Assembly: GCA_038998585.1 (NCBI GenBank) | Contig: JAVZGQ010000005.1 | Coordinates: 1-56,493 of the forward strand | Source of the DNA: Candidatus Aenigmatarchaeota archaeon | Lineage (GTDB): Archaea > Aenigmatarchaeota > Aenigmatarchaeia > CG10238-14 > SCSR01 | DNA: 56,493 nt | Reading direction: 5' to 3' | Part shown: one piece after another, positions 49,977 through 56,493 of the stretch | How positions within the stretch are numbered: position 1 is the stretch's first letter | Layout: the number at the start of each line of letters is the position of its first letter | Notes under the pieces: generated by a model | The model's database searches: none | The model's input: only the letters and a program-made list of their open reading frames with translations | Told to the model about the DNA's origin: nothing | Position numbers and translations under genes: made by a program

Positions 49977-50227
49977 CTCAGGCTTTTAGTAGGAGCAGGC
50001 TCGCCTCTCGCTCGAAAGCTTGAGGCTTACACCTCTCCCCTATCAAGCTTGTAGTCTACAAGGGCCTTCGTCTTACTACCGATTCTTGCGAACCAGCAGT
50101 AAGAATGGTCGTCTATTTTTCCGGGTGGTTTCGTCCTTAGATGCTTTCAGGACTTATCCACACATGGCTTGGCTGCCCGGCGATGCATGTACAACCGGTA
50201 GACCAGAGGCCACGGAAGGGCGTTCCT

Positions 50228-50264
50228 TTTACGTATATCCAGCAAATCCCTAAACTGGGTATAT
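50228..50264 (-). other. 23S BHB intron, 37 nt, after ~2661 (sarcin-ricin loop)
   Basis: Central helix UACG/CGUA, bulges AA|A and AA|A. Splicing gives AGUACGAAAGGAAC. Confidence 0.88.
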
Positions 50265-50329
50265 TTCGTACTCACCCTTCCTTCCGGTCAGACGACCAGC
50301 ACCTCATGTAGATAGCGACCGAACTGTCT

Positions 50330-50390
50330 TTGTCGTCATATCAAATGTACAGCCTTAGATTTCTTCAATTTTTAATACACTTGACATGAT
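50330..50390 (-). other. 23S BHB intron, 61 nt, after ~2597 (H93)
   Basis: GUCG/CGAC, bulges UG|A and AA|A, long intron stem. Splicing restores GUCGUGAGACAG. Confidence 0.9.
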
Positions 50391-50510
50391 CACGACGTTC
50401 TGAACTCAGCTAGCGTCCCCTTTTAACTAGTGGGCACCTATACCCTTGGCCGCTGCTGCACGGCCAGGAGAGGGGGAGCCAACATCGACGCACCAACGCG
50501 CCGGGTCAAT

Positions 50511-50578
50511 TTACCCGTGCGAAGGGCTCTTGTTCAGAACAAGGCCTCGCTATCTTTGGGATGAATCCCCTTCGAGCA
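50511..50578 (-). other. 23S BHB intron, 68 nt, after ~2477 (H89 loop)
   Basis: GCCC/GGGU, bulges AC|U and AA|A, stem CGAAGGG/CCCUUCG. Confidence 0.82.
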
Positions 50579-50750
50579 GTGGGCTTTCACCGGCCACGGG
50601 CCCATTATCCCCGAGGTAGCTTTTCTGATACCCCCGGCAGCCATTAAGACCAACCGAGGTATCGCTAACCCACGCTTTCGCGGCTGGATTCCTCGCTTTG
50701 CGGAATCCAGTCAGGCCAGCTTTTGCGTTTACACTCTACTCCGGATTTCT

Positions 50751-50838
50751 TGCGGGTGGTAGAGTCTATTCTCATCAGCTACCTCCGAAATCATCGAAAT
50801 CATTCTGGAACGGTTCAATCATTGCTAGTCTCTACCAT
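50751..50838 (-). other. 23S BHB intron, 88 nt, after ~2306 (H84), contains C/D-box motifs
   Basis: CGGG/CCCG, bulges UC|A and CA|A, stem UGGUAGAG/CUCUACCA. Confidence 0.9.
50775..50822 (-). ncRNA. Putative intron-encoded C/D box guide RNA
   Basis: AUGAUUGA - 11 nt - AUGA - UUU - CGAUGA - 12 nt - CUGA. The D guide pairs 11/12 with 23S 50608-50619. Confidence 0.72.
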
Positions 50839-51206
50839 GACCCGGATGAGCTGACCTTTGGGCACCCTCGATCCTTTACCGAGGGTGTACCGCCCCAGCC
50901 GAACTGCCCATCTGACGCTGTCCTCTTTCGAGTTAGCGGTAAGGTTGCGAAAGGGTAGTGTTACACTTTCCTCTCAGCTTTTGGCCGAAGCCTAAGCCTA
51001 TAGCGAGTCCTACCTACTCTATGCAGTCACAACCTTACCACAACATCAGACTGCAGTAAAGCTCTACGGGGTCTTCGTTTCCCACATGAGGTCTCCGGCC
51101 TATTCACCGGAAAGGCGAGTTCACTGGGTCCCAGCCCAGGACAGTGGGGAAGTCGTTAAGCCATTCAGACGGGCCGTCATTTAAACGGCAAGGGATTACG
51201 CTACTT

Positions 51207-51253
51207 ATACCGCCCAAGGCGGCGATCATCAAAATCATATGACCGCCTCAGGT
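51207..51253 (-). other. 23S BHB intron, 47 nt, after ~1927, with D'/C' motifs
   Basis: GUCG/CGGU, bulges UA|A and AU|A, stem CCUGAGGCGG/CCGCCUUGGG, loop AUGA-UUU-UGAUGA. Confidence 0.87.
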
Positions 51254-51471
51254 TACGACGGTCAGAGTTACCGCCGCCGCTCTGCGGGGCTTCTTCCCGT
51301 TGGACCGGGCTTTCACACACCGCAGCTGGGCAGGCATCAGAGACCGTACTCATCCTTTCGGACTTGCGGTCTCCAGCGTTTTTGTTAAACAGTCGCTTCC
51401 CCCTTGTCACTGCGACCTGCTCTCCCTTGCGAGAGAACAGGCACCCCTTCTAGCGAACATACGGGGCCAAT

Positions 51472-51526
51472 TTCGGTTGAGTAAAGATCTTACCCAATTT
51501 TATATAATTAATCGACCTTCACCCAT
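51472..51526 (-). other. 23S BHB intron, 55 nt, after ~1677
   Basis: CGGC/ACCG (1 mismatch), bulges AA|A and AA|A. Splicing restores CGGCAAAUUGG. Confidence 0.83.
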
Positions 51527-51589
51527 TTGCCGATTTCCCTAGACTGGGTTCTCCCAACACACCTTTGCCTTCTCGGCAAGCCTACCTGT

Positions 51590-51621
51590 TTCCCGGAAGT
51601 ATAGTTTAAACTTATACTTCT
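51590..51621 (-). other. 23S BHB intron, 32 nt, after ~1615
   Basis: ACCG/CGGG, bulges AC|A and AA|A, stem GAAGUAU/AUACUUC. Splicing restores AACCGACACAGG. Confidence 0.85.
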
Positions 51622-54747: not shown

Positions 54748-54803
54748 GTCCACATCAAAAAGCCGATTTAAAAAATCAATTTAGACTTTTCGGCTCTTTG
54801 ATT
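54748..54803 (-). other. 16S BHB intron, 56 nt, after ~1363
   Basis: Outer helix CGGACG/CGUUCG, central UCAU/GUGG, bulges CA|A and AC|U, 13-bp intron stem. Confidence 0.9.
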
Positions 54804-54848
54804 TGATGACGTCCGCTTACTAGGGATTCCGGCTTCACGAGGACGAGT

Positions 54849-54896
54849 TTGCTGGAGCACTAGCTTTAATAGTAAAAATTTATCTACTAGTACTCT
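54849..54896 (-). other. 16S BHB intron, 48 nt, after ~1318
   Basis: GCUG/CAGC, bulges UA|A and AA|A, stem GAGUACUAG/CUAGUGCUC. Confidence 0.9.
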
Positions 54897-55155
54897 TACA
54901 GCCCTCGATCTGAACTGGGCGCGCTTTTAGGGGATTCGCTTCCCCTTTCGGGGTTGCATCCCTTTGTGGCGCGCATTGTGCGTCGCGTGTGGCCCAGGAC
55001 ATTCGGGGCATACGGACCTACCGTCGCCCACTCCTTCCTCTGGCTTATCGCCAGCGGTCTCCCATGAGTGCACTCTCTCTGAAGAGAGGGTTAGCAACAT
55101 GGGATGTGGGTCTCGCTCGTTAACGCACTTAAGCGCACGCCTCACGGTACGAGCT

Positions 55156-55444
55156 TTATCGTCCTGCCAGCCTCCTTATAATTTCTATTTTAATATTTTT
55201 TAAAGATCATCAAGCTAACTACTCAATTTTTTGATAATTCTTTCTTTTTATTTTGCAAAACATATGAGAAACTTCTTAAATTCTAATTAACTCTTGAATA
55301 TATGTTCATCAGACCCGCTGAACTATTGTATAAACATACTTATCCATCATTTTGTTGAGTTTTTAGTTTTTTGTATTCAATCGAATCTAATTTACAGTAG
55401 AATCTAATTTATGTAGTTTTCTATGTTTTGGAGACTAACAGGAT
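55156..55444 (-). other. 16S BHB intron, 289 nt, after ~1066, AT-rich, no intact ORF
   Basis: AUCG/CGAU, bulges UC|A and AA|A, stem UCCUGUUAG..UCC/GGAGGCUGGCAGGA. Confidence 0.9.
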
Positions 55445-55454
55445 GACGATGGCC

Positions 55455-55513
55455 TTGTGCAGGAGTGTCACTCTTTAAAAATAACATGGGTTAACTTTAG
55501 AGCGACATTCCTT
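55455..55513 (-). other. 16S BHB intron, 59 nt, after ~1056
   Basis: GUGC/GCAC, bulges AU|A and AA|G, 14-bp intron stem. Confidence 0.9.
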
Positions 55514-55643
55514 ATGCACCACCTCTCGGCTTGTCTGGTAAGCCCTTCAGACTGACCCTCATCCTGCCGTCGGCCCTGGTAAGATTTCCGGGGTTGAATC
55601 TAATTGAACCGCAACGCCCACCCCTTGTGTGCTCCCCCGCCAA

Positions 55644-55761
55644 ATCGGGGAGAAGAGCATCCGTTTCAAAATTTTTAATTTTATCTACTAGCAATCATTT
55701 CTTATTCCCCAAAGTAGATTCTATCTGATTTAAAGTTAATTTTAGTTTCGGGCTCTTCTCT
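55644..55761 (-). other. 16S BHB intron, 118 nt, after ~919
   Basis: AGGG/CCCG, bulges AA|A and AU|U, stem GAGAAGAGC/GCUCUUCUC. Confidence 0.88.
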
Positions 55762-55772
55762 TTCCCTTAAGT

Positions 55773-55816
55773 TTGGTGTACAGGGAAAGCACAGCCAATT
55801 CTAGCCATCCCTGAAG
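55773..55816 (-). other. 16S BHB intron, 44 nt, after ~908
   Basis: GGUG/CACC, bulges AA|C and AA|A, stem CAGGGA/UCCCUG. Confidence 0.88.
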
Positions 55817-55927
55817 TTCACCCTTGCGGGCATACTCCCCAGGCGGCCCCCTTAACACCTACGCTCCGGCACTACAAGCTCCCGAGAAGCTTGCAACACC
55901 AAGGGGGCATCGTTTACGGCTAGGACT

Positions 55928-56008
55928 TTCCCGCACGAGTTAGGAAATCCTAGCTGGAAATTTGGGATTTTCTTCATATCTTTGATCAGAAGATACCCAA
56001 TCTCGTGT
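55928..56008 (-). other. 16S BHB intron, 81 nt, after ~801, with D'/C' motifs
   Basis: CCCG/CGGG, bulges GU|A and AA|A, stem CACGAG/CUCGUG. Confidence 0.9.
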
Positions 56009-56493
56009 ACCGGGGTATCTAATCCCGATCGCTCCCCTAGCTTTCGTCCCTCACCGTCAGACCTGTTCCAGGCAGGCGCCTTCGCCACAGGTGGTCCCCC
56101 TAGGATTACAGGATTTCACCCCTACCCTAGGAGTACCCCTGCCCCATCCCAGTCTCAAGTCTGGCAGTATCCTCAGCAAGCCCTCTAGTTTGCTAGAGGA
56201 TTTCACTGAGGACTTACCAAACCGGCTACGGACGCTTTAGGCCCAATAATCATGGCCACCACTTGGAGTGCGGGTATTACCGCGGTGGCTGGCACCCGTC
56301 TTACCCACTCCTTATTCGCCATCCCGTTTTCAGATGGCGAAAGCCCTTGCAGAGCAAGGGCACTCCGGCTTCCCTTTTCTCGCGTTAGCGAATTGAAAAG
56401 GTTTCTCGCCTGCTGCGTCTCGTAAGACCTGGACTCATGTCTCAGAGTCCATCTCCGGGCTCCTACTTCCATAGCCCGTACCCGTTATCGCCT

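Follow-up and report, generated by a model that had tools for sequence, protein, structure and literature searches.

Introns delimited by a motif of the bulge-helix-bulge (BHB) type are textbook features of ribosomal RNA (rRNA) genes in a few crenarchaeal orders. For 16S genes, the catalogue of Jay and Inskeep 2015, drawn from Thermoproteales, Desulfurococcales and Aigarchaeota, counts about 230 introns over a total of about 115 genes, roughly two per gene, at 13 loci (374, 548, 722, 781, 803, 901, 908, 919, 978, 1093, 1205, 1213, 1391); in the part of that paper available here, Crenarchaeota and Aigarchaeota are the sole hosts named (PMC4496867). In 23S genes, intron Vdi141.L1927 of Vulcanisaeta distributa and its Aeropyrum pernix analogue are located at site L1927, near helix 69 (H69, 23S positions 1906-1924; PMC2602781). 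The DNA analyzed here is a contig from a tiny archaeon of hot springs, a Candidatus Aenigmatarchaeota member of the DPANN group (JAVZGQ010000005.1, assembly GCA_038998585.1; 56,493 nucleotides, the whole stretch being indicated as "the window"). On its minus strand it carries a rRNA operon, where a partial 16S gene is interrupted by eight inserts and the 23S gene by seven. These 15 inserts are very probably archaeal BHB introns without coding capacity, excised by the splicing endonuclease EndA, with exons joined by the ligase RtcB: junction geometry, exon restoration, covariation, base composition and enzyme context all fit this interpretation.

Insert positions were defined by a MAFFT alignment of the rRNAs of the window with three intron-less archaeal rRNAs and those of E. 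coli K-12; sites are reported in E. coli numbering, where "S" indicates a 16S site and "L" a 23S site. The 16S inserts follow positions 801, 908, 919, 1056, 1066, 1318, 1363 and 1492; the 23S inserts follow positions 1615, 1677, 1927, 2306, 2477, 2597 and 2661. The same sites had been proposed by hand alignment in the original prediction, and every one of the 15 is correct according to the MAFFT alignment. Lengths range from 32 to 289 nucleotides (nt), for a sum of 1197 nt. Two pairs of neighbouring introns leave micro-exons between them, of 11 nt for 908/919 and of 10 nt for 1056/1066. Coordinates are reported in Table 1. The functional regions concerned include the decoding centre in h44, H89, H93 and the sarcin-ricin loop in H95; sites at helices 89 and 93 presumably adjoin the peptidyl-transferase centre.

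In common with the 16S introns of Jay and Inskeep 2015, the inserts feature a BHB at the junction, a location where the gene is most conserved, short (<50 nt) hairpin forms devoid of an open reading frame (ORF), and a tendency to occur in close pairs: 901/908 and 1205/1213 there, 908/919 and 1056/1066 here (PMC4496867). Loci 908 and 919 are identical to catalogue entries, and the 801 of the window may be catalogue locus 803 (PMC4496867). The statement, in the original prediction, that 908, 919 and 1927 are known sites is borne out: the first two are present in Table 1 of PMC4496867, while the third is the site of Vdi141.L1927 (PMC2602781). Differences are also evident: here eight introns are found in three quarters of one DPANN 16S gene, loci 1056, 1066, 1318, 1363 and 1492 are outside the list given in the available part of the catalogue, and the GC content of single introns is 0.26-0.53, compared to a mean of 0.57 (PMC4496867). 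Vdi141.L1927 is 586 base pairs (bp) long and encodes the endonuclease I-Vdi141I, while the intron found at the same site of the window has 47 nt and no endonuclease (PMC2602781). Numerous rRNA inserts are also described, in the accessible part of PMC11270868, for bacteria of the candidate phyla radiation, likewise ultra-small and host-dependent; their hosts, being bacterial, are without a BHB/EndA pathway. The literature search, with supplements and most subscription journals outside its reach, did not find dense BHB introns in DPANN rRNA, nor introns at 16S 1492 or in the sarcin-ricin loop; similarly, 16S positions 1056, 1066, 1318, 1363, 1492 and 23S positions 1615, 1677, 2306, 2477, 2597, 2661 were not found as sites in the literature searched. 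While the kind of intron is known, this search hints that the density, the host lineage (Aenigmatarchaeota) and several of the sites (A1492/A1493, sarcin-ricin loop) may be new.

Table 1. Introns, micro-exons, genes and processing elements of the rRNA operon, with window positions; the last column indicates where the same site is occupied among related genomes (G-numbers)
Feature	Position	Strand	Length (nt)	Central helix	Description	Relatives
Intron 16S-801	55928..56008	-	81	CCCG/CGGG	bulges gt|a, aa|a	G003, G006c3, G007, G014
Intron 16S-908	55773..55816	-	44	GGTG/CACC	intron helix with one T.T mismatch after first pair	39-nt intron with perfect BHB in G014
Intron 16S-919	55644..55761	-	118	AGGG/CCCG	3/4 pairs (A.G); 9-bp intron helix	695-nt insert in G026
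Intron 16S-1056	55455..55513	-	59	GTGC/GCAC		235-nt intron in G013, central helix compensated
Intron 16S-1066	55156..55444	-	289	ATCG/CGAT	GC 0.26; 14-bp intron helix	56-nt intron in G014
Intron 16S-1318	54849..54896	-	48	GCTG/CAGC		42-nt homologue in G014
Intron 16S-1363	54748..54803	-	56	TCAT/GTGG	within hairpin loop; 8-bp exon helix	G010, G013, G017
Intron 16S-1492	54519..54632	-	114	GGGC/GCCT	between A1492 and A1493	G003, G006c3, G007; intron helix with compensatory changes
Intron 23S-1615	51590..51621	-	32	ACCG/CGGG	3/4 pairs (A.G); 8-bp intron helix	window alone among 12 clade 23S sequences compared (window counted)
Intron 23S-1677	51472..51526	-	55	CGGC/ACCG	3/4 pairs (C.A); 12-bp intron helix	295-nt intron in G019, central helix perfect
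Intron 23S-1927	51207..51253	-	47	GTCG/CGGT		G003, G006c29, G013, G009
Intron 23S-2306	50751..50838	-	88	CGGG/CCCG		eight relatives; motif cells paired 123/126
Intron 23S-2477	50511..50578	-	68	GCCC/GGGT	intron helix of 1 bp, 2x2 internal loop, 7 bp	BHB in six relatives
Intron 23S-2597	50330..50390	-	61	GTCG/CGAC	15-bp intron helix	65-nt homologue in G006c29
Intron 23S-2661	50228..50264	-	37	TACG/CGTA	within sarcin-ricin loop tetraloop (GAA|A)	window alone among sequences compared
Micro-exon upstream of 919 intron	55762..55772	-	11			
Micro-exon upstream of 1066 intron	55445..55454	-	10			
16S rRNA gene, 5' part absent	54470..56493	-			includes 8 introns (809 nt); Rfam RF01959, 832 bits; 3' end from alignment	
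23S rRNA gene	49966..53332	-	3367		full length, includes 7 introns (388 nt); Rfam RF02540, 2444 bits, model positions 1-2987	
23S processing stem, 5' strand	53322..53351	-		GTCA	outer helix GGATCAAGGAG; bulge ct|a; predicted cut 53335/53334	
23S processing stem, 3' strand	49948..49976	-		TGAT	bulge aa|g; outer helix CTCCTTGATC; predicted cut 49959/49958	
Spacer tRNA gene	54186..54270	-	85		ARAGORN: Arg(GCG); by eye tRNA-Ala(UGC), G3:U70 pair	

In the BHB geometry known for transfer RNA (tRNA), 5' exon and intron each end in four helix bases and two bulge bases, and the two intron ends pair directly inside; an intron at 37/38 of a tRNA fits this definition. In the window, the last six exon bases and the 3' end of the intron would form a 4-bp helix between two 3-nt bulges, closed inward by the intron hairpin. 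Such a motif had been claimed for every junction: in its strict form, with all four pairs of the helix intact and one 3-nt bulge on each strand, it is present in 12 of the 15, while one non-standard central pair is found in each of S919 (A.G), L1615 (A.G) and L1677 (C.A). In S908 and L2477, a mismatch or a small internal loop is located at the start of the intron helix. The motif is closed outward by 1-8 exon-exon pairs at ten of the 15 sites, and the 3' bulge is aa|a in ten of the 15.

A tolerant motif test asks for three or more of the 4 central pairs and for eight or more among the first 10 pairs of the intron helix. It is passed by all 15 introns, compared to 0.2% of 200,000 length-matched placements drawn at random in the window. 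With both splice sites shifted by 1, 2 or 3 nt, in either direction, none of the 15 passes. A stricter filter, where the 4-bp helix must be perfect and two or more consecutive intron pairs and four or more flanking pairs are needed, is failed by six introns: inspection and the tolerant count indicate that this stems from mismatches, not from the absence of the motif. In minimum-free-energy folds, the BHB is contained in the structure predicted for the 289-nt intron with its flanks (z = -3.7) and in most of the other junctions inspected, with exceptions, for example S801, L1927 and L2477.

As anticipated by the original prediction, removal of the inserts restores conserved rRNA: all 15 junctions match those of intron-less relatives. 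Examples of restored exons are GGGTGAA^ACTTAAGGGAA^TTGGCGGGG, GGTGGTGCAT^GGCCATCGTC^AGCTCG and GGGGCTA^AGTCGCC. For S919, the window alone would also allow other registers, with a 3-bp helix or a 4-nt bulge, which are overruled by the exons of the relatives: the junction, which reads GGGAATTGGCGGGG after removal, is fixed because the same sequence is found, intron-less, in the same-genus genomes G003, G007 and G006c3 (G-numbers indicate the related genomes compared; G006c3 and G006c29 are contigs of G006). At L2661 the junction restores AGTACGAAAGGAAC (AGTACGAA^AGGAAC), the sarcin-ricin loop, in the same form found in 12 relatives. A separate observation concerns the tetraloop of this element, which after splicing (window exons 50265..50271 and 50221..50227) reads GAAA, with an A at the position of E. 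coli G2661. GAAA is shared by all 12 related 23S genes readable there; the outlier G006:C26 has GAGA, as does E. coli.

The distribution of the inserts was followed in 30 related genomes, where a 16S match was found in 18 and a 23S match in 16; full-length genes measure 1473-2354 nt for 16S and 2906-4682 nt for 23S. Inserts in 16S are 10 in G014, 6 in G006c3, 5 in G013, 4 in both G007 and G017, 3 in G003, 2 in G026, 1 in G010 and none in three genomes. In 23S they are 12 in G006c29, 10 in G013, 7 in G009, 6 in G019, 5 in both G003 and G026, 2 in four genomes and none in three; among these inserts, the BHB was checked in those located at the window's own sites. The density, originally described as extreme, is real, in that the 15 inserts exist, but is not peculiar to this genome: G013 has 15 over 16S and 23S, a number equal to that of the window. 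High intron density is a property of the clade, since relatives are equally intron-rich.

For eleven of the 15 sites, one or more relatives have an insert in the same register; these sites were used for a covariation count, where 14 motif positions were scored per site and the control was obtained by sliding the 3' partner by 1-3 nt. Outside these eleven, S908 is matched in G014 and site 919 is occupied in G026 (Table 1). Rows were left out for G017, G013, G014 and G026 at S1492, the insert being near 1500 or at the sequence end, and for G026 at L2477, with just 2 of the 4 central pairs formed, in an insert possibly of another kind. Standard pairs are found in 551 of 616 cells (89.4%), compared to 33-42% in the slid controls, and compensatory double changes at 43 of 154 positions, compared to 7-18; the compared sequences are kin, and these counts overstate the number of independent events. 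Exon base and intron partner are changed jointly, for example, in G013, both at S1056 (CTGC/GCAG in place of GTGC/GCAC) and at L2477 (GCTC/GAGT in place of GCCC/GGGT). Homologous introns keep the BHB via compensatory changes.

Presence of the introns varies within the genus. Those at 908, 919, 1056, 1066, 1318 and 1363 are absent, at the exact junctions, from G003, G007 and G006c3: with these genomes, which feature 92-94% rRNA identity, only 801 and 1492 are in common in 16S, and only 1927, 2306 and 2477 are shared in 23S with G003, the sole same-genus genome that close in this gene. With so few introns in common, turnover between species is fast. G006 deserves a separate remark: this 1.7-Mb genome, indicated as 'same genus', contains at least three distinct rRNA gene sets (contigs C3, C26, C29, C50) and looks like a mixed bin; one of the sets is free of introns and shares only 67-74% identity with the window.

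Composition also separates inserts from exons. GC content is 0.577 in 16S exons and 0.335 in 16S introns, 0.535 in 23S exons and 0.41 in 23S introns; the corresponding values are 0.342 for the genome and 0.306 for the 16S-23S spacer. In this respect the inserts look like sequence not retained in the mature rRNA of a thermophile.

That none of the introns encodes a mobility protein holds true: the longest frames touching the 289-nt intron, measured stop to stop, reach 28 amino acids (aa) in sense orientation and 38 aa in the opposite one, and the remaining 14 inserts are too short for protein coding. No LAGLIDADG match is present in the operon: all four found in the genome lie elsewhere, one adjoining rtcB and three within very long frames. 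In relatives, five of the six large inserts tested, including the 695-nt one found in G026 at site 919, encode LAGLIDADG proteins, which fits descent from homing introns followed by gene loss. Most likely, judging from these sequences, the introns descend from mobile introns equipped with a homing endonuclease gene, since lost; the resulting mini-introns would be quickly gained and lost between species. It is also conceivable that gene-less mini-introns spread without homing endonucleases, via reversed cleavage and ligation. A search for a single sequence family among the 15 introns, or shared with other parts of the genome, gave only AT-rich matches of 10-22 nt, with E >= 0.002, and no convincing family. 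A 610-nt insert following 16S 975 in G007 (L011:2521-3090) contains a 190-aa frame without LAGLIDADG match, where a weak similarity to an ArsR-type helix-turn-helix (E = 0.002) is below cut-off.

The presence of self-splicing group I or group II introns could in principle account for interrupted rRNA genes: in the accessible part of PMC6125680, group I introns are described in DPANN rRNA genes (LSU/1923, 1931, 2593 and SSU/1498), and BHB and group I introns are reported together in rRNA genes of metagenomic archaea. For the inserts of the window such a nature has practically no chance of being correct: 14 of the 15 measure 32-118 nt, which leaves no room for a catalytic core, and covariance models detected no group I core in the inserts. 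Rfam families other than the rRNAs are absent from 44000..56493 at gathering thresholds, and no RNA family matches the 289-nt insert (55150..55450) at E values up to 1.

The enzymes expected for BHB introns are both encoded by the genome. EndA is found as one ORF of 188 aa, including both domains PF01974 and PF02778, and scores 116 bits with TIGR00324 (cut-off 59.6); RtcB is identified by a 473-bit match to PF01139. A phmmer search over the 3263 open frames of the genome, 88% complete, found no second EndA subunit or paralogue: the next-best match (E = 0.026), judged by eye, resembles a small DNA-binding protein, not an EndA. By gene content, the enzyme is classified as alpha4-type. Compared to that of M. 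jannaschii (1a79), it features six extra residues directly before the catalytic His, aligned with the insert of the ARMAN-2 enzyme (4fz2). A motif like RGVKLxRGPKAPHEH is matched, as a regular expression, by 57 of 80 EndA homologue loci, from Aenigmatarchaeota and Nanohaloarchaea; the closest homologues, with 70-93% identity, are all from Candidatus Aenigmatarchaeota.

Classical alpha4 EndA is described as strict, while loop-bearing alpha4 enzymes are reported for DPANN lineages with heavily disrupted tRNA genes, and each of the substrate-broadening loops L1/L2/L3 is an insert close to the catalytic pocket that contains a conserved lysine (PMC5829648, in its accessible part). Judging from its position, the extra loop found here may be the 'L3' of that work. 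The likeness to the system of Kaneta et al. 2018 extends to the single-gene alpha-type EndA, the extra loop and the heavily interrupted RNA genes; the difference is that tRNA, not rRNA, genes are concerned there (PMC5829648). As to the rtcB locus itself, the match (G000:C1:32265-33607; L046, L047) consists of two pieces, between which a TAG stop and a gap of some 100 nt are found, and a LAGLIDADG match is located directly upstream, at C1:31585-31812.

Splicing products were looked for in contigs, not raw reads, from four runs: three RNA libraries (X4, X9, X17), from two studies, and one DNA run (X1). The joints listed are 15 out of 101. L2477 is skipped exactly in X4, X9 and X17, with 50510 joined to 50579 and a shorter side of 23-25 letters; the X9 contig shows 1 mismatch in 158 nt. 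L2306 is skipped in X4 and X17 (50749 to 50839; shorter sides of 37 and 74 letters) and L1677 in X9 (51470 to 51527; shorter side of 30), in both cases with one changed letter at the joint. None of these three joints is present in DNA run X1. Of the spliced junctions suggested as a check along with the original prediction, joints were seen for three of the 15 introns, in contigs for which intron-less relatives are a possible source. Other candidate signals were discarded. Of the 15 joints listed, twelve have no counterpart among the introns of the window and were read as variable regions belonging to other organisms; one of these twelve is joint 52179>52302, also found in DNA. Comparison of intron and exon depths was not used as evidence, depths being reported per contig, summed over organisms and affected by the filtering out of conserved rRNA; stretches lacking cover carry no weight either.

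A further ligated junction is provided by the processing of 23S rRNA. In archaea, BHB motifs in the 23S flanks, ligated ends and circular pre-rRNA are described (PMC7714728; 10.64898/2026.03.23.713588; PMC12918454, all as far as their available parts go), and a comparable processing stem is present in the window (Table 1). In RNA contigs of X4 and X9, 53334 is ligated to 49959, exactly as expected from both predicted cuts. This is ordinary processing, not an intron; the junction points to circular pre-23S, or to a permuted 23S, in this lineage, and is an internal positive control that the pathway acts on its pre-rRNA. The same EndA and RtcB would release and circularise pre-23S at this stem. 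Splicing of the introns in vivo is supported indirectly, by the RNA contigs joined at three of the 15 sites, which may equally stem from intron-less relatives in the same samples.

For 12 of the 15 sites no direct ligation signal is available, and the contig joints possibly come from intron-less relatives: this would be compatible with cleavage by EndA not followed by exon joining, where mature rRNA would consist of fragments held in the ribosome, as for bacterial intervening sequences. A break at A1492/A1493, or in the sarcin-ricin tetraloop, is damage that inactivates ribosomes, and unligated exons would produce precisely such breaks; the 10- and 11-nt micro-exons, in addition, would be free oligonucleotides. 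RtcB is present, joined forms are found in RNA at three sites, the ends of pre-23S are ligated, and characterised archaeal rRNA introns are ligated, according to the available part of PMC4496867. Unligated exons are accordingly considered improbable, and the interpretation as fully spliced BHB introns is preferred. EndA would cut two bases into each bulge, RtcB would join the exons, also at the other 12 sites, and would probably circularise the introns; universal rRNA would thereby be restored at the decoding centre (between A1492 and A1493), in the sarcin-ricin loop, at the sites of helices 89 and 93 and elsewhere.

Some results weigh against this interpretation. Three junctions are off the strict motif, and such relaxed junctions are not what a single alpha-type EndA would lead to expect, although a second subunit could be missed at 88% completeness. 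The three RNA joints could stem from intron-less relatives in the same samples: their short sides are 23-74 letters, all three joints at L2477 being below 30, and joints with a likeness below 95 or a short side below 30 often come from other organisms. No joint was found for the other 12 introns among the 15 of 101 joints listed. Finally, an exact 213-nt contig, entirely inside the S1066 intron, is present in RNA run X9 at a depth of 8.6; neighbouring 16S exon bins, with depths of 3.3 and 0.6, are not above it, so depletion of S1066 relative to its own exons is not demonstrable in X9. The contig shows that this organism, or a very close strain, was present in the sample; the RNA it derives from may be precursor, excised intron or contaminating DNA.

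An intron-internal contig in an RNA library would also be produced by inserts kept in mature rRNA as expansion segments, known from Asgard and other archaeal rRNAs (PMC7594248, available part). Yet the inserts occupy universally conserved single-stranded or loop positions, not variable regions, and each features a BHB in exact register. They are cleanly present or absent among species of one genus, are AT-rich as the genome, unlike the exons, and in three cases are skipped by RNA contigs. Retention as expansion segments is very hard to reconcile with these features, and is judged highly improbable.

The operon is contained in a metagenome assembly of 574 kb, in 13 contigs, 88% complete. The Rfam match to 16S covers 54657..56493 on the minus strand (model positions 255-1478) and is 5'-truncated at the window end, the 254 nt that are missing being a possible place for further introns; at the other side it ends early because of the last insert, 16S-1492, while the MAFFT alignment places the 3' end of the gene, GGATCACCTCCT, near 54470. 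The spacer between 16S and 23S is about 1.1 kb and includes one tRNA gene; the operon is probably transcribed as a single 16S-tRNA-23S precursor. Given the kind of assembly, and a 16S gene cut at a contig end, the operon might be taken for a dead or misassembled copy, with junk inserted in a pseudogene or chimeric contig. No second rRNA operon, however, nor any further piece of 16S, was found in the 574 kb; exons are conserved (2444 and 832 bits), and relatives assembled independently carry homologous introns at matching sites. Exact DNA contigs of X1, a run which may be the source sample and is therefore not independent, cover seven introns. Only a very slim chance, smaller than for retained inserts, is assigned to a dead copy.

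If the inserts are spliced BHB introns, one operon of a DPANN genome of about 0.6 Mb needs at least 15 intron excisions, in addition to processing-stem cuts and, probably, removal of a tRNA intron: per precursor, EndA cuts number over 30 and RtcB ligations over 15, including those involving the 10- and 11-nt micro-exons. Ribosomes probably depend heavily on tRNA-splicing enzymes. The introns could be more than passengers, since they are located at A1492/A1493, within the tetraloop of the sarcin-ricin loop and next to the peptidyl-transferase centre: subunits would stay inactive until EndA and RtcB finish, and ribosome output would be gated by splicing, an idea regarded as improbable. Were the rtcB message itself in need of BHB splicing, a feedback loop would connect the supply of ligase to the making of ribosomes, in a cell that depends on a host.

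The clade may be seen as a natural system for the origin, decay and tolerance of protein-spliced introns where the ribosome is most constrained, because gain and loss are clean and both endonuclease-bearing and gene-less versions occur at the same site. There are also practical consequences. Intron-rich rRNA genes break assemblies. The intron at 1492 presumably interrupts a universal-primer site. The same is reported for introns at 801, 908 and 919 (PMC4496867, available part); amplicon surveys would therefore overlook organisms of this kind, or record them with a wrong size.

Two minor features of the operon remain to be described. The tRNA gene of the spacer is below threshold with the Rfam tRNA model; in the reading by eye its D-loop is longer by about 12 nt, probably owing to a mini-intron located at a non-canonical position. 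In helix 44, at 16S 1494-1507 (window positions about 54505..54518), the conserved GUCGUAACAAGG reads GTCGCCACAAGG; the same sequence is found in G003, G006c3, G007 and G010, and GTCGTCACAAGG in G022. These changes are lineage-specific and affect E. coli positions 1498 and 1499.

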